From positions 800,001 through 864,000 of the forward strand of contig OZ001293.3 in NCBI GenBank assembly GCA_963921275.4: a stretch of 64,000 nucleotides of DNA, given 5' to 3'. This stretch comes from an uncultured Hormoscilla sp. Lineage in GTDB: Bacteria; Cyanobacteriota; Cyanobacteriia; Cyanobacteriales; Desertifilaceae. The notes beneath the pieces are model-generated. The model ran no database searches, was not told the DNA's origin, and worked only from the letters and a program-made list of their open reading frames with translations. Within the stretch, counting starts at the first letter, position 1. The number at the start of each line of letters is the position of its first letter. Position numbers and translations under genes: made by a program. This document shows positions 1,352-62,932 of the stretch, in pieces.

Positions 1352-2274
1352 GTCCAGATAGATTGAAAGTCTGGTTTGGTTTCATTTGCTAGACAACTCT
1401 GGTTATCATGGGGGTTAAATTCCCTCTCCCCAGGTGTGGGGGGTCGAGAATACTACCGGTCCTTAGTGCTGCGGAGTCACATCGCCGTGGTGCTCCGCTA
1501 GGACTTAAATGTAGGGTAGCTGGCAGCCTAAGCTGGCAACACCGCGCTTGTTAGATGTTCATGGTTAGAACAAGCGAACCTGTGTAAGCCTCGTCACCTA
1601 TAACCAGCGGAATAAGGCTGATACGCTGGCCCAAAAGGGAAATGGTAGTTAGTGTTGGTAATCTGTACTTACTAGCATCGCACTCGAAGAACTCCCGGGG
1701 TATAGCAGGAACCTAAAAGCATCGAGAAATGATACCAGGGAACGAAGTAACCTCTTGTGTGCAGTTCGGCTCAACGGGGCCGAACCAGTTAGATATACGT
1801 CCGCGTAGCGTGCGCGGAGCGCATAGCGCAAGCCACGAGGGGAAGGATGTCCTAAGAAGCAAATGCCCGGGGTAATGCCCGTGGATAAGCTGACGTCGGA
1901 CGGATATGGTAAGAAGCCTTTGGTGAAAGTAGCCCTAATATGTCGCAAAACTTAGGAGAAATCCAAAAGTATGAATATGGACTAGAGTCTCAGCCGGGTA
2001 AAGTTCAGAGCCCCGATAAATCAGGAATGGGGAAATGTTAGTAAAGAGCGGTTAGACCGGTTTGCTGAACTACCCTCCGCGAACCTTCCGGAGCTGAAAT
2101 CATTAACGGTCCAATAGGATTGACCATAAGGGGTAAAATTACAGAGGGTAAGGGGAAACGGGGTGACCTAATTATTGATGATGATATGCCTAAGGACAAG
2201 CCCCAGCGGTGAAAGTCGCAAGTCCGGTTTCGCTCTTGGAGGGTTGGGAAGTGATTCCCAGCTCGACCCCGACC
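1352..2274 (+). mobile_element. ORF-less group II intron, 5'-truncated, degenerate domain V
   Basis: Near-identical over most of its length to 48632-49545; ends CTCGACCCCGACC; GTGCG start missing. Confidence 0.85.
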
Positions 2275-2573
2275 TTGACATATTGGCAAGACGCTAAGTA
2301 GTCAAACTAGGAACTACTTAGGTCCAGGGCCCAGACGAGTACCGGTCTATCCTGTGTGATGGCCAAGCCCAAGCGGCGATAAGAAGCTGCGCATCGCTTA
2401 GCGTGCGCGTAGCGCATAGCTACCTGACTTGCATGAGTAGTTGCTCATACCACAAGTCAATCTTGGTCTGTTTTGTCTAGCTCGCGCTCATGAGCAGCGT
2501 AGTAGTTAGGGCCACGGCGTTGGCGACATAAATGAATCGAGAAAAAGCTATTGGTGTAAGGAGATTAACGTTG

Positions 2574-3677
2574 ATGGAGAAAATTAAGATAGCGATCGCA
2601 GGAATAGGAAACTGTGCGAGTTCATTAATTCAAGGGATTGAATATTACAAGGGGAAAGACTTCTCTGAGGCGATCGGATTGATGCATTGGGAGATCGGCA
2701 GCTATAAGCCCTACGATATGGAAGTTGTCGCTGCCTTTGACATCGATCGCCGCAAAGTTGGGTTCGAGGTGCATGAAGCTATCTTTGCCGAACCAAACTG
2801 CACGGCTGTGTTTTGCTCCGACCTGCCCAAAACTGGAGTGAAAGTAAGTATGGGCAAGGTGCTGGATGGATTCTCGGAGCACATGAAGAATTATGAGGAT
2901 AAATATACCTTCGTCCTCAGCGACGAACCCGAACCGGAGAAAGCAGATATTGTCAAGATATTGAAAGAGTCGGGCACGGAAATCTTGCTCAATTACCTGC
3001 CAGTAGGCTCACAGGAAGCAACGGAGTTCTATGCAGAATGTGCAGTGGATGCGGGAGTAGGATTTATCAATTGCATCCCGGTGTTTATCGCTAGCAATCC
3101 CCTCTGGGCAGAGAAATTCCAACGAAACAACATACCCATCATTGGGGACGACATCAAAGCGCAACTGGGTGCCACAATTACTCACCGCACCCTATCGGAC
3201 TTGTTCAAGAAGCGGGGGGTGAAGGTAGAACGCACCTACCAGATTAATACCGGGGGCAATACTGACTTCATGAATATGCTCAACCGCAGTCGCCTGAACT
3301 CGAAGAAAGAATCCAAAACCGAGGCAGTGCAAGCGGTGATGAGCGCTCACCTGGAAAAGGAGAACATCCATATCGGTCCCAGCGATTACGTGCCCTGGCA
3401 AAAAGATAACAAGGTGGCGTTCATTCGCATGGAGGGCAAACTGTTTGGGGACGTGCCCATGAATCTGGAAATGCGTCTGTCTGTAGAAGATTCACCCAAT
3501 TCGGCGGGAGTCTCGATCGATGCCATCCGCTGCTGCAAGCTAGTCCTCAATGCCAAAAAGGGTGGTATTCTCTATTCACCTTCCGCCTATTTCATGAAGC
3601 ATCCGCCCAAACAGTATACGGATGACGAAGCTTATCGGATGACGGAGAACTTTATTGCTGGCAAGCGTGCCGATTAA
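2574..3677 (+). CDS. ino1: myo-inositol-1-phosphate synthase
   Basis: GIGNCASSLIQG, NYLPVGS, GDDIKAQLGAT, GGNTDF, EDSPNSAG motifs; RBS AAGGAG upstream of ATG 2574. Confidence 0.92.
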   Translation: MEKIKIAIAGIGNCASSLIQGIEYYKGKDFSEAIGLMHWEIGSYKPYDMEVVAAFDIDRRKVGFEVHEAIFAEPNCTAVFCSDLPKTGVKVSMGKVLDGFSEHMKNYEDKYTFVLSDEPEPEKADIVKILKESGTEILLNYLPVGSQEATEFYAECAVDAGVGFINCIPVFIASNPLWAEKFQRNNIPIIGDDIKAQLGATITHRTLSDLFKKRGVKVERTYQINTGGNTDFMNMLNRSRLNSKKESKTEAVQAVMSAHLEKENIHIGPSDYVPWQKDNKVAFIRMEGKLFGDVPMNLEMRLSVEDSPNSAGVSIDAIRCCKLVLNAKKGGILYSPSAYFMKHPPKQYTDDEAYRMTENFIAGKRAD

Positions 3678-3691
3678 GCAGTGATATCCGA

Positions 3692-3706
3692 TTTTTCCGG
3701 AACGGT
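3692..3706 (+). repeat. 15-nt micro-insertion TTTTTCCGGAACGGT after CCGA
   Basis: Identical copies at 7359-7373, 7680-7694, 10672-10686 and 15732-15746 (- strand); variant at 22573-22587. Confidence 0.85.
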
Positions 3707-3838
3707 GGCATCACTGTAGGGTTGAGGCGGGTAATTGTCTCGATATGAAGGAAGTTGTTGCGTGCATTTCGTATTCGCGCAACAACTTCCTATCGATCGG
3801 ATATAGTTGCTCCATTACAAATAATTTACAAAAGTATT

Positions 3839-4520
3839 ATGTCGGACTTACGCTTAAATCTGGGCTGTGGTGCAAAACATCTAGAGGGCTACATCAATGT
3901 GGACAAGTTTGAAAATCCCGACATCAGATTAGACTTGGAGACATTCCCTTGGCCGTGGGAAGACAATAGTGCGATCGAAATTGAACTGTCTCACGTACTG
4001 GAACATCTCGGACAGTAGACAGAAGTCTATCTGAAAATCATCCAGGAGATATATCGGATCTGTAAAGCAGGGGCAAAGGTGCATGTGAGAGTCCCCCACC
4101 ATCGCCACGATGATTTACTCCACGATCCGACCCACGTGCGGGCAATCACTCCCTTTAGTTTGAGCATGTTTTCCCAAAAACTGAACCAAGAGTGGCAAGC
4201 AAACGGAGATGCTACTACGCCACTGGGTCTAGATCTGGGTGTTAACTTCGATTTGGTGGAGACTATCTATATCCCTAGCGAACTTTGGTACTCTCGGGAA
4301 GGCGATCGGGCTGATGATACAGATTATCTCCTGGAACAGAGTACACTGTACAATAACCGGCGTTGCACAATCACGGGATGATGGGTCTCTTTGCATAAGT
4401 CTTAAACGTATACTATAAGCCACTTTTAGTTATGTGCAAACAATGGCATCATCCCCAAAATGTGCAACGCCCAATAACCTAATCAGAGAGATGGACATGA
4501 CCCTAGTGGCAGTCAAGTAA
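3839..4520 (+). pseudogene. SAM-dependent methyltransferase-like protein with nonsense codon (TAG 4016-4018) and MITE insertion
   Basis: LNLGCG and SHVLEHL motifs; removing the MITE restores YNNLIREMDMTLVAVK*. Confidence 0.8.
4359..4471. mobile_element. 113-bp MITE
   Basis: TIRs GGCGTTGCACA / TGTGCAACGCC; 8-bp TSD CAATAACC at 4351-4358 and 4472-4479. Confidence 0.9.
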
Positions 4521-23865: not shown

Positions 23866-26800
23866 ATGAAACCGGAATTGGAGCGGATTGAGGCTACATT
23901 GGCTCAAATTATAGCAGAGCAAAACAATAATGTAAAAAGGGGTGCGATTCGTTTAGTGTAAACCACCGGCGATAAGCCGACGGGGGACCACTAGCAGGGT
24001 TTCATTAGCCCTGATAACTTTTAGATGATGGTGGTGAAAGCCCACCCCTCCAGGTGCAGGAGTGAAAGCGTAACCCCTACGGTAGCGATGGCATCAATCC
24101 GTAAAGCGGGGTTAAAAGGCGCAGTAACTGGTAGCCCTTACCGGTCATCGCCAAGCAAGTAGTCATGGTGAGCGAAAGCAAAGACTCATAAGTGTCGTTA
24201 CACTAAACCAGTGAAAAGGCTGAGAAGCTGGCCCAAAAGGGAAAGGATAATGGTCATTGGCGGTTCCTTTCCCGACCAATAAGCACTGACAATAAACCCG
24301 GCATAAAGAGCCCATCTAAAACTACGACCAATCATTTAGAGGAGCGAAGTAAACCAGATACACACCCTTAACTACCGGTCGATAGGTTGAGTAGCCACCA
24401 CAGGCGCAACATCTGCTCTCATCAGGCAGGTTGTATCTGGGAAAGATTTCGCGGAGAAGCTAACGCCCGTCTGTAATGGATGGGATATGCTGACGCCCTC
24501 ACGGTAACGTCAATTGTGAAGTTGTAAGTAGCAATGCATACGTCATGAGCACGATATCAGAATCGATGAATGAATGGAAGGATATCCCCTGGCCTCGGCT
24601 GGAGCGGGTAGTCTTTAAGTTGCAAAAGCGAATTTACAGAGCGGCAATGGAAGGCGTAATAAGCGACCAGTTCGCAGACTCCAAAGGTTACTGGTAAAAT
24701 CCCGGGCTGCCAAAAGTCTAGCGGTACGACAGGTAACACAAGATAACCAGGGAAAGAAAACGGCGGGAGTGGACGGTGTTAAAGCACTGACCCCGAAGCA
24801 ACGCTTAGAACTGGTAGGACAAATTGAAATCTCAAACAAGGCCAGGCCAACACGTAGAGTATCGATTCCCAAGCCAGGGAGAGAGGAAAAGCGTCCTTTA
24901 GGAATACCAACGATGAACGACCGCGCGACACAAGGATGGGGTCGAGCCGGGAATCGCTTCCCGACCCTCCCTTGAGGAACCGGACTTGCGATTTTCACCG
25001 CATCCGGCTACTGGGTACTAGGCCCTTTTCATAGGTAGACTTAATAGGAATTACTTCCGTTAGCCCTTGCCGCCTGTCTTTTCTTCCCTTTCCTGGTTTA
25101 GCGAGTGGTTGTTCTGATAACCGTTAGTATCACCATTTTCAAGTCAGTTTTACCAGTTATCCATACCTTATCCTCCACTTGCGTTTCGGATTAGTTCCGT
25201 GGCTTTTTAGGATTACTCATTCCAGCAGCTTCCTAGTATCACCGACCCACGTCAGCGCTGGCTACCCAGCATCATCTACATTACTGTAGATGTTATCCCA
25301 GGAATTACCCCGGGCATTCGCTTCTTGGGCCATCCCTCCCCCCGTGGCTTGCGCTTAACATCTAACTTGTCCTGATGGACAGCACACGAGAGGTTACTTC
25401 GTTCCCTAACAACATTTCGCGATACCTTTAGGTCCACACTATACCCCGGGAGCTATTTGAGTACTATATTAGCCAGAGTCTAAAACTAATACTAGCTACC
25501 ATTTCCTTTTTAGGCCAGCGCATATAGCCTTATTTCGCTGGTTCCTTATAACGAGGCTTGCACATGTTTGCCTGCTCTAACCTTGGATATCTTTCCTAGC
25601 GGCGTCACCGGCTTAGGCTGCCAGTTATCCTACATTTGAGTCCTCGCTTAGCACCACGATGATGTCGCTTCGTAGCACCGAGGACCGGTGTCACCCCCGT
25701 ACCTGGGGGGAGGGGAATTTAACCCCCATGCGGTCAGAGTTCCTGGCTAATGAAACCGGGCTAGCGTTCCGTGTTTGACCACGTTAGGCTAGAACGAATC
25801 GCACGGATGGGGTCGAGCCGGGAATCGCTTCCCGACCCTCCCTTGAGGAACCGGACTTGCGATTTTCACCGCATCCGGCTACTGGGTACTAGGCCCTTTT
25901 CATAGGTAGACTTAATAGGAATTACTTCCGTTAGCCCTTGCCGCCTGTCTTTTCTTCCCTTTCCTGGTTTAGCGAGTGGTTGTTCTGATAACCGTTAGTA
26001 TCACCATTTTCAAGTCAGTTTTACCAGTTATCCATACCTTATCCTCCACTTGCGTTTCGGATTAGTTCCGTGGCTTTTTAGGATTACTCATTCCAGCAGC
26101 TTCCTAGTATCACCGACCCACGTCAGCGCTGGCTACCCAGCATCATCTACATTACTGTAGATGTTATCCCAGGAATTACCCCGGGCATTCGCTTCTTGGG
26201 CCATCCCTCCCCCCGTGGCTTGCGCTTAACATCTAACTTGTCCTGATGGACAGCACACGAGAGGTTACTTCGTTCCCTAACAACATTTCGCGATACCTTT
26301 AGGTCCACACTATACCCCGGGAGCTATTTGAGTACTATATTAGCCAGAGTCTAAAACTAATACTAGCTACCATTTCCTTTTTAGGCCAGCGCATATAGCC
26401 TTATTTCGCTGGTTCCTTATAACGAGGCTTGCACATGTTTGCCTGCTCTAACCTTGGATATCTTTCCTAGCGGCGTCACCGGCTTAGGCTGCCAGTTATC
26501 CTACATTTGAGTCCTCGCTTAGCACCACGATGATGTCGCTTCGTAGCACCGAGGACCGGTGTCACCCCCGTACCTGGGGGGAGGGGAATTTAACCCCCAT
26601 GCGGTCAGAGTTCCCGGCTAATGAAACCGGGCTAGCGTTCCGTGTTTGACCACGTTAGGCTAGAACGAATCGCACGGACTCCTCAAGATTACGCTCGAAC
26701 CTGAATGGGAGGCGTATATGAAAGGGAACTCCTACGGGTTCAGACCGGGTAGGGGATGTCACGATGCAATCCAGGCAATATTTGATAGCATCAGATATAA

Positions 26801-28837
26801 ACCCAAGTGGGTAATGGATGCTGATATTGCAAAATGCTTCGATAAGATTGACCACAAAGCGCTAATGAAAAAATTAAATACAACGTCACCAATCCGTAAG
26901 CAAATACGGGCATGGTTAAAAGCCGGGGTGATGGACAAAGGAGAATGGCATGCAACCGAAGCGGGAACTCCCCAAGGGGGAGTCATATCACCACTACTAG
27001 CCAACATAGCCTTACATGGGTTAGAGGAGGCAGTAAAGGAACTCGCCAGGACACAAAGGGAAAAGCAAAAGCTGACGGTAATCAGGTATGTTGATGACTT
27101 TGTGATAATACATGAAGATAGGGAGATAATAGACAGAGCGCAGACAGTGGTGGCAAAGTGGCTAAAGGGAATGGGGCTAGAGTTGAAAGCCGAAAAGACA
27201 AAAATAACTCATACGCTAAAGGGAGAAAAACCGGGATTTGATTTCCTGGGGTTCAACATAAGGCAATATGAGACGGGTAAATACAGAGCCAACAAATCAC
27301 CCCAAGGAATACCCCTAGGGTTCAAAACCCTAATCAAACCCAGTAATAAGTCCGTAGGTAAGCATAAAGAACGGTTATCAGAAATGGTCGCCAGCCATAA
27401 AGCAACACCACAGACAGCCTTGATAAGTAGGCTAAACCCGATAATACGGGGATGGTCAAACTATTACAGAACTGTGGTGAGTAAGGAAACTTACAGCGAC
27501 ATGGATAACTACCTATGGAACATCCTATGGCAATGGGCCAAAAGGAGACATCCCAAAAAGTCAAGTCACTGGATAGCCCGTAAGTACTGGTCTAAAGACC
27601 AGGGTGGTAAATGGCGATTCCGATGCAAGACAGGAGAGGGAGAGATAACGCTGTGCAAACATACTGAGATAATCAGACAAGTAAAAGTAAAAGGCACAGC
27701 AAGCCCATACGATGGGAACCTTACATATTGGAGTACGAGATTAGGCAAAAGCCCCGAACTGAGCAAGAGAGTGGCAACAGTATTGAAGAGGCAAAAGGGA
27801 AAATGTCAATACTGCGGATTAACGTTTATGGACAGTGACAAATGAGAAGTTGACCAGATCAAGCTTCTTTCATTAGCTTACCATTACTCGCATAATTCTT
27901 TACAATCTTAAAACCCTTATGGTACAAAGATTCTGAGACTTAGCATCCTCAACGGGGTTGACAAAAATCCCGACCTCTTTCTTGATAAATTATTTAATTT
28001 ATTGAGAATGACTTAGGAAGTAATCAGGGTTTCACCCCCCATAGTGGCCACAGAGAGAAATGTTAAGAAATATGTGAGTAAAGCATAGTTTCATTAGGGG
28101 GTAAGGACCGGTATGACAACCTACAGTTGCTGCACAAGCATTGCCACGATATAAAGACTGCCAGCGATGGCAGCAAAAACAGCCGTACCCATGACAAAGG
28201 TGGCGTTACTGAGGAGCCGGATGACGCGAAAGTGTCAAGTCCGGTTCTGAAGACGAGTCGAGGTGGTGACACCCTGGCTTAGTTTAATTCCGCTATTCAG
28301 AAAAATCAGACCTACTCCTTTGACTTACTACCCAAAACCCCGCCAGAAATCAAAGCGACAATCCCTCCCATACAGCCCTTGTCGCAAGAGAACCGGTCCA
28401 AGACGCCAGCACTGCCCAAGCTGAAAACTCATAGCTTTAGCTCTCATCAAAACGCAGCCAACCCATATCTGGCAATCAATCTGTTGCAAGAAATTCAGGG
28501 GGTAGTCACCGGCTGGCAGCGGGATTTGCAGCAAGTACATGCAGAAATTCAAGACCTGTACCGAGAAGGACCGATAGTGGATGGCTGGTTAGAGTCCAAT
28601 CCGACAGGAGGAGGTAAGCTTGATGTGGCAGCGGGCTATCGCCTGTGCAGACTAGAGTCCAACGGCAAGTTGTGGTTCTGTCCCTGTCCTCCAGACCAGG
28701 TGGCCACTGTCTCGGTGGCGATCGCCCGCTATCATCAGCTGCGACAACTGCTCAGTCGCAAGCAAGATCTGGAATCTCGTCTGACCCAATTATCTGAAGC
28801 CTTGGTAATTTTGCACGGGCAACTGCGTGAAGCATAG
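23866..28837 (+). CDS. Conserved hypothetical gene split by an RT-type group II intron (exon 1 23866-23941, exon 2 about 28290-28837); probably inactivated
   Basis: MKPELERIEATL before the intron; open frame after it leading into GPIVDGWLES. Confidence 0.6.
24934..25804 (-). mobile_element. ORF-less group II intron (871 nt), tandem copy A
   Basis: Starts GTGCGATTCG on - strand; canonical D5 AGCCGGATGCGGTGAAAATCGCAAGTCCGGTT. Confidence 0.92.
25805..26675 (-). mobile_element. ORF-less group II intron (871 nt), tandem copy B
   Basis: Head-to-tail duplicate; removing both copies restores RT sequence DRATQ|GLLKITLEPEW. Confidence 0.92.
27877..28088. mobile_element. 212-bp MITE
   Basis: 9-bp TSD TTTCATTAG; imperfect 28-bp TIRs; excision restores LSLGGKDRYDNLQLLH. 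Confidence 0.85.
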
Positions 28838-36970: not shown

Positions 36971-39390
36971 ATTAAACTAAGCCAGTACGTCACCGTACCG
37001 ACTCGTCTTCAAAACCGGACGTGAGACTTTCACCTCATCCGGCTCCTCAGTTTCGTCATCCTTGTCATGGATACGGCCTTTGCTGCCATCCCTGGCAGAT
37101 TTATAATCATGGCAGTAGTCGTGCAGCAACTGTAGGTTGGAGTACCAGTCCTTACCTCCCAGTGAGGTTGGCAGGATGTGGTCCACTTCCCATTTGTCGC
37201 CGTCCTTAAACGTTAGTCCGCAATGCTGGCACTTGCCATCCTGCCTCTTGAGCAGGTTAATCACTCTCATGCTTACGTCCGGGCTCTTTCGTAATCTCTG
37301 GCTCCAGTAGACTAGGTTACCGTCAAGCGGGCTAGCTGTTCCCTTTACCTTTGTGTGTCTGATTATTTCAGTTTCAGAGTGCCGGATTAGCTTTATTTCT
37401 CCTTTCTTGGATTTACCGATGAACCTCCACCGGTCCTTACCGGTCATGGCCCAATAATTTTTGGCAATCCATTCGCCCGATTTATTGGGATGCCTTCTCT
37501 TTGCCCATTGCCACAGCAGCTCCCATAGGTAGCTATCCATGTCGCTGTAAGTTTCCTTACTTACCACCGTCTTGAAGTAGTTGCTCCATCCCCTTATCAT
37601 TGGGTTTAGTTTGACTATCAAGGCTGTCTGTGGTGCCGATTTATGGCGGCGAACTATCTGTGATAGTTGCTCTTTATGATTCCTAATGGATTTATCGCTA
37701 GGCTTGATTAGGGTCTTGAATCCTAGGGGGGTTCCGTTGCTGAGTTTGCCGCTTCTGTGTTTCCCTACTTTGTATTGTCGGATATTGAACCCTAGGAAGT
37801 CAAATCCGGGGTTTTCTCCTTCCAGTGTGTGGGATATCCTGGTTTTCTCGGCTTTTAGCTCTAGTCCTATTCCCTTCAACCACTCCTCAATCACTCCTTG
37901 TGCTCGCTCAATCATTGACCGGTCATCGTGCATTACCACAAAATCATCGGCGTACCTGACTATCGTTAGTTTCTTTTCCTCTCTCTTTGTGCGGGCAAGA
38001 CTCATCACTACCTTTTCCAACCCATGTAGGGCTATATTGGCTAGCAATGGTGATATTACTCCGCCTTGAGGAGTTCCGGCTTCTGTGTCCTGCCATATTC
38101 CCTGGTCCATCACCCCGGCTTTTAGCCATGCCCGTATCTATCTACGGATTGGTGATGTTGTATTCAATTTCTCTAGGAGCGCTGAGTGGTCAATTTTGTC
38201 GAAACATTTCGCAATATCCGCATCTAACACCCATTTTGGTTTCTTGTTGGTGCTGGTGAATATCGTTTCGATCGCATCGTGGCATCCCCTTCCTGGTCTG
38301 AATCCGTAGGAATTGGCTTCCATGTACGCTTCCCATTCGGGCTCAAGCGACTGTTTGACCAATCCCTGAAGTGCGCGGTCGTGCATCGTCGGTCTTCCTA
38401 GTGGCCGCTTTTCGTCCCTTCCTGGCTTAGGTATCCATACACGCAGTGTAGGTTTCGCCTTTGCCTTCCTGGATACTCTGAGCTGACTTACCAGTTCCAG
38501 TCGCTGCTCCATAGTCAGTGCTTTCACACCATCCACACCAGCCGCATTCTTTCCTTGGTTTTGTTGTGTTACCTGTCTCACCGCTATCATCTTCGTGGAC
38601 CATGACCTATTTAGTAACCCTTGGAGCTTGCGAACTTTCCGCTTGTTGCCTTCCTGTGCCGCTCTGTAAATTCGCTTTTGTAGCTTGAAGACATGGCTGG
38701 CGCCACGCTAGCGCGATCGGCGCTCCAGCTCCTGCCAGGGCACCTCCTTCCATTCATACTCTTGCTTTTCGGCTAAGTTCCGTGACATATTAACTACTAC
38801 TCACAACTTCACAATTGACAAAACCGTGAGGGCGTCAGCTTATCCCATCCATTACAGATAGGCGTTTGCTTCTCCACTCAATCTTTCCCAGCTATGACCT
38901 GCCAAATGAGAGCAGATGTTGCGTCTTTGGTGACTACTCCATCTATCGACCGGTGATGGAGAGTGCCTAGCTGGGTTACTTCGTTCCTACAGATGATTAA
39001 TCGTAGTTTTAGATGGATTCTATATGCCGGGTTTGTTGTCAGTGCTTATTAGTCGGATTACAACCGCTAATGACCATTATCCTTTCCCTTTTGGGCCAGT
39101 GTCTCAGCCTTATTACACTGGTTGATGTTGACGACACTTATGAACCTTTGCTTGCGCTCATCATGACTACTTGCTCGACGATGACCGGTTTAGGCTACCA
39201 GTTAGAGCGCCTTTCCTTCCCGCTTTACGGATTGATGCCATCGCTACCGTCGGGAGGATGCTGTCACGAGAGCACATGGAGGGGTGGGCTTTCACCACCA
39301 TCATCTGTAAGTTGTCAGGGCTATTGAAACCCTGCTAGCGGTCCCCTTTCTTGACACGTGTCAAGTCATTTTACCCTAAACGAATCGCAC
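36971..39390 (-). mobile_element. Group II intron with RT ORF
   Basis: GTGCGATTCG at 39390; D5/D6 ending GTTTAAT; EBS1 TGTAAT pairs with exon end ATTATA. Confidence 0.92.
36977..38788 (-). pseudogene. ltrA: Group II intron RT/maturase/HNH with two premature stops
   Basis: YADD and HNH intact; TAG inside a 24-nt micro-insert near 38710 and TAG at 38138-38140. Confidence 0.9.
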
Positions 39391-48372: not shown

Positions 48373-51300
48373 ATGGAGCAGCAAAAACGAAAACCCCAGA
48401 CTAACCAATTCCCACTAGACGCACCAGTTAGCCTCCCCGTGTTCTTCAGGACTTACAGCCGGCGCACAGCCGACGGCAAACGCGAATCCTGGAAAGATGT
48501 GTGCGATCGGGCGATCGCAGGTTTAACCGAGTTAGGCAAACTAACCCCGAAAGAATCAGACCTGCTCTACCGGATGCAGCTACAGCTGAAAACACTGTCT
48601 TCTGGCAGATGGTTGTGGATAGGAGGTACAGGTGCGATTCGTTCAGGCGTAAACCGGTAACGGAGAAAGCCTGACTGGCATCATTAGCCAGAAACTCTGG
48701 ATATCATGGGGGTTAAATTCCCTCTCCCCAGGTGTGGGGGTAACACCGGTCCTTAGTGCTGCGGAGTCACATCGCCGTGGTGCGGAGCTAGGACTTAAAT
48801 GTAGGGTAGCTGGCAGCCTAAGCTGGCAACACCGCTAGGAAAGATGTTCATGGTTAGAACAAGCGAACCTGTGTAAGCCTCGTCACCTATAACCAGCGGA
48901 ATAAGGCTGATACGCTGGCCCAAAAGGGAAATGGTAGTTAGTGTTGGTAATCTGTACTTACTAGCATCGCACTCGAAGAACTCCCGGGGTATAGCAGGAA
49001 CCTAAAAGCATCGAGAAATGATACCAGGGAACGAAGTAACCTCTTGTGTGCAGTTCGGCTCAACGGGGCCGAACCAGTTAGATGTAAAGCGCAAGCCACG
49101 AGGGGAAGGATGTCCTAAGAAGCAAATGCCCGGGGTAATGCCCGTGGATAAGCTGACGTCGGACGGATATGGTAAGAAGCCTTTGGTGAAAGTAGCCCTA
49201 ATATGTCGCAAAACTTAGGAGAAATCCAAAAGTATGAATATGGACTAGAGTCTCAGCCGGGTAAAGTTCAGAGCCCCGATAAATCAGGAATGGGGAAATG
49301 TTAGTAAAGAGCGGTTAGACCGGTTTGCTGAACTACCCTCCGCGAACCTTCCGGAGCTGAAATCATTAACGGTCCAATAGGATTGACCATAAGGGGTAAA
49401 ATTACAGAGGGTAAGGGGGAAACGGGGTGACCTAATAACCCTACTGATGACAACAGCTTACCAACCAGTAGCCGGATGCGGTGAAAGTCGCAAGTCCGGT
49501 TTCGAAAGGGAGGGTTGGGAAGTGATTCCCAGCTCGACCCCGACCAGTGGATTAAGCAACCTGAAAATTTTCCTGGTGCTTATAATTGTTCATCAACTAA
49601 TATCCTTGACTGGCGATCGTTTGGTTTGTTAATGGATTTGGCCATGATGGGTTGTGGGACTGGTGCGGTTCTCGAACCCCGCTACATCAATCAACTACCA
49701 CCCATTCGCAATCACCTGAAGGTGAAACTTTGGGGCAAAATTGGCGCAACTTCACCAGCAATGCGACGGGAAGAAACTGAGGTGAAAATATCCGGGAACA
49801 AGGTAATAATTTACGTCGGCGACTCTCGCCAAGATTGGGTAGCTTCCTATCAATCTCTGTTAGAATTATCCACTGAAGAGCGATTTACCGACTCAGTGGA
49901 GGTTGATATTGATTTGAGTGATGTTCGCCCAGCTGGGGAACATCTCAAAGGCTTTGGTGGTGTAGCAAATCCAGTGAAATTACCAGTTCTGTATCAACGC
50001 TGTGCAGGGATATTAAATAAAGCTGTCGGACGGCAATTAAATTCCGTGGAATGCAGTTTGTTGATTGATGAAGCAGCCGTGACGATCGTGGCAGGCAATA
50101 TTAGGCGCAGCGCGGGGATTCGTCAATTTGCCTTTGATGATGAATTGGGTGGCAATGCTAAGAATAATCTCTGGCAACAAGATGAAAATGGTAACTGGCG
50201 CATAGACCCCGATCGGGATGCCTTGCGGATGGCAAATCATACCCGGATATTCCACCACAAGCCAACCTTAGAAGAATGTATTGCAGCAGTTCGCAAGCAG
50301 TATTATAGCGGCGAAGGGGCAATTCAATGGGCTGGAGAAGCGATCGCCCGTGCCAATGCAGATCTGCTCAGCAGTTACGAACATAAAACTGACTTTTTAG
50401 CTGCCTACGATCGTGGCGAAGGCGAACAATGGTTGCAGGAAAAATACCCGCAGCTATCGGATGAAGAACGACAGCATCGTTTAGCCCGACTTGGATTAAA
50501 CCCGTGCTTGAGCGACGATACTTGGATTCTTACGGAAAACGGTGCTCAAAAAATCAAAGACTTGTTAGGTAAGCAAGTTGGACTATTTGTTAATGGGGAG
50601 TTATTTTCGACCACAAAGGAAGGATTTTACCAGACTGGTGTTAAGCTTCTTTATCGTTTAACCACAAAGGAAGGTTACGAAATCCGAGCCACTGACAACC
50701 ATCCATTCCTTAAAATTACCGCCCAAACGCAGAAAAAACAATACAGCGAATGGACAGAGCTTAAGGACTTGTCAGTGGGCGACCGTGTTTCTATCCACAA
50801 TCATAAGGGCATTCAACCCTGGTACGGTGACGGAACTTTTGGTGAAGGATGGCTGCTCGGCAGTCTTGTTGGCGATGGCTGTTTTTCGGTCAACGAAAAA
50901 AATTACCAACGAGCGGCTGTACTTCGTTACTGGGGAGGCAATCAAGCTCAAATGGCTGATTATGCAGTGGCGCTTATTGGAAAGGAGCTTGGTTCACAAC
51001 TTGCTTCTATTGCTCTCCCACGCAACCAGTACACCCAAGTGGGAGGGGCGGCGTTGTATGAGCTGGCGGAGCGGTTTGGGATGAAGCAACGTCACAAAAC
51101 TGTGACGGATGCAGTTGAACGAGCGAGCTACGATTTCTATCGTGGCTTTTTGCAGGGCTTCTTCGACGCTGATGGTGGCGTGCAAGGTTGTCAACTAACG
51201 GGAGTCTCTGTCCGCTTAGCTCAAAGCGATCTGGATGTGTTAAAGGCTGTTCAACGAATGTTATTGCGGCTAGGTGTTGCTTCAAGTCTTTATCGGTGCC

Positions 51301-61987: not shown

Positions 61988-62932
61988 GTGCGATTTGTTC
62001 CGACATAAACCTATAAGGGTGAAAGTCGGGTCTGGTTTCATTAGCCAGATAACTTTGGTCATCATAGGGGTTAGATTCCCCTCCCCCAGGTGCGGGGTGA
62101 CACCGGTCTTCAGTGCTGCGGAGCAACATCACCGTGGTGCCGAGCGAGGACTTAAATGTAGGATAGCTCCTAGCCTAAAGGAGTGACTCTGCTAGGAAAG
62201 AGGCTCATGGTTAGAACAAGCGAATCTCTGTAAGTATCGTAAACACGAACCAGCGAAAAGGCTAATGCGCTGGCCCAAAAGGGAAAGCAGTTTGCGTATC
62301 AATGTTTGCTCTCCATTGGTATCGTACCCGAAATGACTGCCGGTATAGAGTAGAGACCTAAAAGCCTCGCGAAATGATACCAAGGAACGAAGTAACCCCC
62401 GTGGTGCTGTCCTCATTTGGACAAGTCAGATGTGCGTCCGCGTAGCGTGCGCACAGCGCATAGCGCATGCCCATGAGGGGAGAGATGGCCCGAGAAGCTA
62501 ATGCCTAGGCGGTGTCTGGAGCATGCCTTGGTGTCTGGAGCACACCAAAGTCCTTCAGGACAAGAGCATGCGGAAGACGCCGGTAATGCCTATGGATACG
62601 CAGACGCGGGTCGGTGATACTAGTAAACTATTGGTACAAGTAGCTCTAAAATGTCATAAGCCCATTTACAGCGTTAGCGAAAGCGAGTTGAGGATTGAGG
62701 AATGTTTAACTGGTAAAACGGAGTGTTAAATGGTGATACTAAAGGTTATCCGGCAGCTCCACTCACCAACCAGGAAAGGGGCGGACGTGCAAGTAGTAAG
62801 GGACAATGGGAGTAATCCCTAGTAATCCTACCCGTGAAAGGGGCCTAGTACCCAGTAGCCGTGTGCGGTGAAAGTCGCATGCACGGTTCCGAAAGGGAGG
62901 GTTGTCCCGCGAGGGACAGCTCGACCCCGACT
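61988..62932 (+). mobile_element. ORF-less group II intron, intergenic
   Basis: GTGCGATTTG start; canonical D5/D6; EBS1 TGCTCT pairs with upstream AGAGTA. Confidence 0.9.

Follow-up and report, generated by a model that had tools for sequence, protein, structure and literature searches.

We analysed a window of 64,000 nucleotides (nt) from the genome of an uncultured Hormoscilla sp. (Cyanobacteriota, Desertifilaceae; assembly GCA_963921275.4, contig OZ001293.3). The window corresponds to C1:800001-864000 of the 6.88-Mb chromosome, which is assembled as one contig; the genome has 47.4% G+C. It contains a decayed group II intron that encodes a reverse transcriptase (RT), and the RT gene of this host intron is interrupted, in antisense orientation, by two adjoining copies of a much shorter group II intron without an open reading frame (ORF). 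We refer to this head-to-tail pair as the dimer. The features of the locus are collected in Table 1; positions without the prefix C1 are those of the window.

An antisense intron pair in a reverse transcriptase gene

Both members of the dimer are 871 nt long and read on the minus strand, and they adjoin each other with a spacer of 0 nt; direct-repeat detection returned a spacing of 871 between them. The sole difference is a T at 25744 versus a C at 26615, i.e. A versus G at intron position 61. The original prediction, which was made from the letters of this stretch, had described two spacer-less 871-nt copies with at least one difference, and its coordinates are exact. Tandem Repeats Finder reported no rows for the dimer; the longest period that it covered was 500, so this is no evidence against an 871-nt repeat. 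When the 1742 nt are taken out and position 24933 is joined to 26676, a continuous RT frame results (...IPTMNDRATQ/GLLKITLEPEWE..., the slash marking the join). An intact paralogue of 592 amino acids (aa), which is encoded at C1:1145513-1147291 and has RVT_N, RVT_1, GIIM and HNH domains, reads identically across the insertion site (...IPTMYDRATQGLLKIALEPEWE...), and the predicted restoration of the frame by exact removal is thus borne out. Also in line with the prediction, the pair is unable to splice from the host transcript, the copies lying on the minus and the host on the plus strand. On an antisense transcript, the two copies could splice sequentially, the upstream copy first. The 3-nt GGA microhomology noted earlier is real as well, given that TCC closes both the intron and the 5' exon. 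Despite this microhomology the boundaries of the dimer are fixed, because of the GTGCG start and the same ends in all 139 genomic copies of the intron. So far as the assembly can be trusted, the dimer is genuine.

Table 1. Features of the dimer, of its host intron and of related structures
Feature	Position	Strand	Description
5'-exon-side intron copy	25805..26675	-	ORF-less group II intron of 871 nt; no difference from the consensus of 139 genomic copies
3'-exon-side intron copy	24934..25804	-	871 nt; carries G61A, a variant in 6 of 139 copies
Retained 5'-exon target	26676..26690	-	IBS1 GAGTCC (26676-26681), IBS2 AATCTT (26685-26690)
EBS1 AGACTC (intron 324-329)	25476..25481	-	3'-exon-side copy; in the other copy 26347-26352; complements the IBS1 consensus GAGTCT
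EBS2 AAGGTT (intron 221-226)	25579..25584	-	3'-exon-side copy; in the other copy 26450-26455; complements the IBS2 consensus AACCTT
Host group II intron	23942..28290	+	Decayed RT-encoding copy; GTGCG at 23942; 3' end uncertain by about 2 nt
Host RT frame 5' of the insertion	24769..24933	+	...GVDGV...IPTMNDRATQ
Host RT frame 3' of the insertion	26676..27845	+	RVT_1 5.8e-38, GIIM 7.9e-25; premature stop inside the HNH region
Small repeat element	27877..28088	.	212 nt, in the HNH-coding part of the host RT; 9-nt direct repeat TTTCATTAG at both flanks
1742-nt self-insertion composites	C1:1325884-1327625, 4741852-4743593, 5180205-5181946, 6029574-6031315, 6410256-6411996		871-nt intron inserted in itself
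EBS, exon-binding site; IBS, intron-binding site.

The chromosome carries 139 full-length copies of the 871-nt intron at at least 95% identity, all copies being chromosomal, plus 21 partial matches; 61 of the 139, which we aligned with MAFFT, are identical to the consensus. Rfam model RF00029 (domains V-VI) matches both members of the dimer on the minus strand (24936-25012 and 25807-25883) with 44.4 bits each, the gathering score being 40. In intron sense both begin with GTGCG, in agreement with the GUGYG rule, and genome-wide this 5' end is found in 138 of the 139 copies, the remaining one having GTGTG. The fold of the last 79 nt (z = -4.1) comprises a hairpin for domain V and, for domain VI, a helix in which a GA is unpaired; the A of this GA, as a bulged branch point, sits 8 nt before the intron's 3' end. 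The 3' end itself (...CCCCATCC) deviates from the AY rule, its terminal dinucleotide being CC (24934-24935 and 25805-25806). The Rfam model stops 2 nt short of it, at ...AU. These terminal 2 nt belong to the intron because the RT frame requires their removal, and the CC is kept in all but one of the 139 copies. It is an unusual terminal dinucleotide and no ground to doubt the assignment to group II. The intron is devoid of an RT ORF in domain IV. Folding of the domain I segment that contains exon-binding sites 1 and 2 (EBS1 and EBS2) gave a z-score of 0.02, which is no usable support for the positions of these loops. In sequence, EBS1 and EBS2 are perfectly complementary to the flank consensus of 99 sites (GAGTCT and AACCTT, respectively) described in the following.

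Target rules and junction scores

For the target rules, the flanks of all 139 copies were taken, downstream members of arrays were dropped, and sites were collapsed where their 20-nt 5' flanks differed by at most 4 bases. This gave 136 sites in 100 classes, 99 of the latter non-array. The logo of the 99 sites has the consensus AACCTT at positions -15 to -10 (intron-binding site 2, IBS2) and GAGTCT at -6 to -1 (IBS1). In the 3' exon, information resides solely in position +1 (0.97 bit), with A at 79 sites, G at 10, C at 5 and T at 5; from +2 to +10 no position exceeds 0.16 bit, the value at +3, and the others stay within 0.04. Target recognition therefore lies almost wholly in the 5' exon, to which one base is added. 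The intron accepts G at +1, this being the second commonest base at independent sites (10/99). The preference for A over G would fit a U at EBS3, and an IIA-type delta-delta' pair would look alike.

A score matrix spanning -16 to +1 was built from the 99 sites. Under leave-one-out scoring the real sites have a median of 11.1 bits, the lowest being at -3.5 and the highest at 17.1. The site of the dimer in its original, empty state scores 8.5 bits. Once one intron is resident, the junction between 5' exon and intron offers IBS2 and IBS1 unchanged; +1 alone changes, from T to the first G of the intron, and the score becomes 9.6 bits. The occupied site is a slightly better target than the empty one because the latter had a poor T at +1. 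Very different values were obtained for the two other junctions, namely -18.2 bits where the intron's 3' end meets the 3' exon, and -17.1 bits for the dimer junction between intron and intron. All 99 real sites score higher than these two, which are no better than some three quarters of the genome's positions. Entry of a second copy at the junction of intron 3' end and 3' exon was accordingly considered and rejected.

The original prediction had stated that EBS1 matches the flanking GAGTCC and misfits the CCATCC of the dimer junction. We can confirm this: AGACTC pairs with five of the six bases of GAGTCC, the mismatch being at -1, and does not fit CCATCC. What had been concluded from it, i.e. 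that the second copy is not the product of normal retrohoming, fails. The argument tested only the intron/intron junction as a target, and entry at the retained junction of 5' exon and intron gives the same head-to-tail product.

As for the location of the dimer within an RT gene, about 3 in 10,000 positions of the genome score at least 8.5 bits, so that about 1.6 such positions should fall on the two strands of a 2.6-kb intron. Since a site of this kind is expected by chance, nothing special has to be invoked for the hit on the RT gene.

Copy lineages, further arrays and the route to the dimer

According to the alignment of the 139 copies, the 5'-exon-side member of the dimer equals the family consensus and its 3'-exon-side partner has G61A in common with the five other copies that carry this variant. 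The two members thus belong to different sub-lineages, which points to independent arrivals.

The search for further intron concatemers that the original prediction had suggested was run, and it revealed an exact head-to-tail trimer of the 871-nt intron at C1:5447656-5450268 (+). Its first copy has a two-base variant at 830/831 that is common to 21 copies, plus one private change; copies two and three are without this variant and have two private changes each. The 830/831 variant resembles the state in related families of a sister species of the same genus (genome G004) and may be ancestral, so that we do not conclude an order of arrival from it. The site of the trimer is the highest-scoring target in the genome, with 17.8 bits (above all 99 sites) or 15.0 bits with G at +1. 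Only 4 positions of the genome now score at least 16 bits. Occupancy climbs steeply with score: it is 0.0007 for positions of 6-8 bits, 0.34 for those of 14-16 bits and 0.6 for those above 16 bits. On the assumption that an occupied junction is as good a target as an empty site of the same score, up to 5.3 re-invaded sites are expected; this figure is a maximum, since occupied junctions have been available for a shorter period. The 2 arrays observed, with three extra copies, are in keeping with it.

We also searched 41 genomes with a 140-nt junction probe. In the genome of the dimer only three full-length junctions were found, and all three array junctions in this genome are exact. The sister species G004 gave three probe matches that run past the junction. 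At C22:55500-63000 of this species there is an exact dimer of a 907-nt ORF-less family (locus positions 2130-3036 and 3037-3943) with 0 differences between the copies, and a monomer of the same family occupies a similar site 1.3 kb away. A second exact dimer, at C32:27000-31000, belongs to another ORF-less family and has a period of 903. The third pair (C1:111500-115500 of G004, near locus position 1980) is less clean, as its downstream member seems to be without the first G. Junction-spanning matches to the probe were found neither in G001 and G002 nor in G003, the latter consisting of 570 contigs, many of which end in introns.

Within the Hormoscilla genome, the antisense site in the RT gene that holds the dimer is filled in four of 31 paralogous introns (C1:614358, 1665451 and 3401340, and window position 26676). 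The filled sites have the best 5' exons, and most of the empty ones read GAGCCC instead of GAGTCC/T. Three empty sites match the filled ones in the quality of their 5' exons, which indicates that this class of sites is not saturated.

Further rearranged forms of the 871-nt intron were noted. A structure of 1236 nt at C1:6460376-6461611 (-) joins intron positions 1 to about 838 to positions from about 472 to 871 and has a good 5' exon ahead; it resembles a dimer in which a loss of about 500 nt, at a short GGGA(G/T)GG similarity, has removed the junction. Self-insertion of the intron is also found; it is at position 768, which lies just upstream of domain V, with the target AATTCC...AAGTCT/A. 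The resulting 1742-nt composite occurs at five loci in four flank classes (Table 1), reflecting either repeated self-insertion or movement as a unit.

We consider it probable, at roughly 0.8, that ordinary retrohoming, on two separate occasions at the same target, gave rise to the dimer. An intron without an ORF must be mobilised in trans; here the RTs of related introns would have served as helpers. RT-encoding relatives of the intron encode RVT_N, RVT_1, GIIM and HNH domains, and possible helpers are available, given that 13 of the 54 host-RT-like open frames of at least 350 aa in the genome extend to at least 600 aa. The first arrival, presumably the 3'-exon-side copy, would have entered the RT gene of the related intron in antisense orientation, guided by pairing of EBS2 and EBS1 with AATCTT...GAGTCC. 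This insertion would have kept the 5'-exon half of the target whole and set the first G of the intron at +1. The occupied site would have stayed a target, because the family reads only positions -15 to -1 and +1 and prefers A, then G, at the latter. A second intron RNA from another donor lineage would then have entered by reverse splicing, precisely where the 5' exon meets the resident intron, and the 5'-exon-side copy would probably be this second arrival.

Several points weigh against this reading or limit what may be drawn from it. The variants give different origins of the copies, not the order of their arrival, and they may also be compatible with an RT that jumped from one intron RNA to another, different one. 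A U at EBS3 is something we infer from the +1 preference alone. Since occupied sites supplied the matrix, the estimate of occupancy is in part circular; the presence of a paralogue of the dimer site among the 99 matrix sequences is a dependence of negligible size. The site of the dimer is middling, with 39 of the 99 real sites scoring lower, and many better sites hold a single copy; beyond chance, its choice is unexplained. No tandem pair occurs in a second family of introns in this genome (836 nt, 72 copies), and this absence tells nothing for or against the reading. Because one A could fall on either side of the 3' boundary in that family, its +1 preference is not cleanly readable. It has to be kept in mind, too, that seven public runs cover part of the stretch, all as short contigs, and that among the contigs of the four examined no record listed bridges 25804/25805 with 31 letters on each side.

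The origins that the original prediction had proposed for the second copy, i.e. template jumping by the RT, copying of a circular intron RNA or duplication via the microhomology, are not supported. In the case of template switching, the RT would reach the 5' end of one intron RNA and jump to the 3' end of a second RNA, producing both copies as one complementary DNA. Group II intron RTs are prone to such end-to-end switching (PMC3683930; bioRxiv 10.1101/2021.05.13.443781). A jump between the RNAs of two donors would, moreover, likewise give copies of different lineages. After full reverse splicing, however, the 5' end of the intron is joined to the 5'-exon DNA, which leaves no free end for a jump, and the route would need a linear intron together with end-joining repair. 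Template switching usually adds extra bases, whereas the five junctions seen, three in this genome and two in G004, are all exact. Nor does it predict a trimer on the best target of the genome. We hold template switching to be very unlikely, and it is not needed.

Slightly less probable still is that one copy was duplicated locally, either in the DNA by unequal exchange or slippage at TCC/GGA, or by repeated reverse transcription round a circular intron RNA. The 3-nt microhomology at both ends is real, circles of group II intron RNA exist (PMC4478347), and the 907-nt dimer of G004 shows 0 differences between its copies. Yet both routes give copies of a single origin, whereas the variant in the dimer is common to five other, dispersed copies and the trimer mixes the 21-copy sub-lineage with another. 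Three bases of homology are very short for recombination, and other arrays are without such homology; in the 907-nt dimer, for example, the 5' exon ends in ...ATGTGG and the intron in ...CTAAT. Least probable of these explanations is an artefact of assembly with a single copy at the locus. Admittedly, 139 near-identical repeats of 871 nt are a hard case for assemblers, and the public contigs mentioned above are uninformative on this point either way because they break inside the repeat. The chromosome, on the other hand, is one 6.88-Mb contig in which all 139 copies are resolved, the members of the dimer differ by a lineage-specific base, and the same architecture recurs in the trimer and in the assembly of another species.

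Host intron, intron load and related systems

The host intron has its own domains V-VI at 28212-28288 on the plus strand (RF00029, 55.4 bits). The closest named relatives of its RT are from Hormoscilla sp. records (67-72% identity), followed by other filamentous cyanobacteria. Besides the dimer, this RT gene has three lesions: an N-terminal frameshift, which falls between the MNEWKD... start and the ...GVDGV... frame, a stop codon after ...DSDK, where the intact paralogue has W, and the 212-nt element in the HNH region. The host RT is dead or dying irrespective of the dimer. The 212-nt element gave 5 high-scoring segment pairs of at least 180 nt in the genome, the one in the window included; three further copies are 95-99% identical, and a few weaker ones occur. 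It looks like a small non-autonomous transposable element.

A strict domain V pattern had 308 matches on the chromosome and 0 in the reversed sequence. Of about 867 rough candidates, 150 were scored with Rfam; this gave 151 matches, and 148 of the 150 matches listed were above the cut-off. Several RT-encoding families are present in addition to the 871-nt and 836-nt introns, and the genome carries several hundred group II introns of several families. This load implies a very recent burst. A literature search on Hormoscilla together with group II introns found nothing on the intron load of this group. In the window, further domain V-VI matches lie at 36971-37047 (-), 49467-49544 (+) and 62854-62931 (+).

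One may also speculate that the ORF-less intron is a parasite of its own helpers and acts as a brake on the burst by knocking out RT genes. A conserved stretch of the helper RT genes (codons GLLKI(T/A)LEP) is matched, on its antisense strand, by the EBS sequences of the intron; the plus strand across the retained target of the dimer (26676..26690) encodes GLLKI. Insertions of the intron, which are unspliceable there, would knock out RT genes (four of the 31 paralogous sites, one of them hit twice). If this were true, stacked copies would mark sites that are still 'hot' after the first hit. We regard this idea as very unlikely.

Tandem integration of a group II intron at an occupied homing site has been described for the IIB1 intron EcKTE56.groEL of E. 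coli (Mob DNA 2025, PMC12584367). In the results reported there, tandems were detected in 22.4% of positive colonies for the ORF-deleted and 4.2% for the full-length intron, and nanopore reads showed them at about 3%. Integration of the new copy is precise, with the end of groEL on one side and the resident intron on the other, and the authors attribute it to an EBS3(U)-IBS3(G) wobble with the first G of the resident intron. As far as this account goes, the likeness to the dimer is close: the junction is exact (intron 3' end, then GTGCG) and entry is between the 5' exon and the resident intron. The route proposed for the dimer similarly reuses IBS1 and IBS2 and tolerates G at +1, with a putative EBS3. 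Tandems of EcKTE56.groEL are commoner for the short, ORF-deleted form with the RT supplied in trans, and the intron of the dimer is likewise ORF-less. The E. coli system is, according to the same account, a laboratory assay with an over-expressed intron and one highly specific site, the groEL stop codon. The dimer, by contrast, is natural; its ORF-less intron has 139 dispersed copies and relaxed targeting, and its array sits in another intron's RT gene, in antisense orientation. The mechanism described in PMC12584367 would be the same as that proposed here, where it is read from genomic sequence.

In Thermosynechococcus elongatus, ORF-less TeI3 introns are reported to be mobilised in trans and to have inserted into TeI4 as twintrons (Mohr et al. 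2010, PMC2882425). By that description, the RT reads only a small part of the target and no part of the 3' exon, and the flat logo at +2 to +10 agrees with this. ORF-less introns driven by related RTs and insertion into other mobile introns are thus features that both genomes appear to have in common. T. elongatus is described as having 28 introns, the inner ones lying in sense orientation between two start codons so that the RT can still be made; the insertion of the dimer is antisense and inactivating, and the copy number in Hormoscilla is far above that of T. elongatus. The word 'tandem' is absent from Mohr et al. 2010.

RNA circles of the Ll.LtrB group II intron have a head-to-tail junction that is diagnostic at the RNA level (PMC4478347, PMC6248898, PMC8266578). 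The available portions of these three publications report no route from circles to tandem DNA in a genome. Such circles are RNA molecules, whereas the dimer is genomic DNA, and its lineages argue against an origin from a single RNA.

Insertion of ORF-less introns into their relatives is also at issue in an archaeon. Reportedly, Dai and Zimmerly found in 2003 that ORF-less introns of Methanosarcina acetivorans home into the ORFs of related group II introns. As in the case of the dimer, ORF-less introns there repeatedly target the RT frames of related introns; the arrays are nested, not side by side.

The dimer is a natural example of a behaviour that was recently demonstrated in the laboratory and is, for these elements, known and ordinary. 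Occupation does not make a homing site immune: the 5' half of the target is still there, and the first G of the intron can take the place of the 3' exon. The target rules derived from the 139 copies predict the junction used and, roughly, the number of arrays to be expected. Head-to-tail arrays of introns can thereby be interpreted without circles or template jumping, and no new question is opened by this finding; the scale of the intron burst in this genome is a more remarkable fact than the dimer itself.

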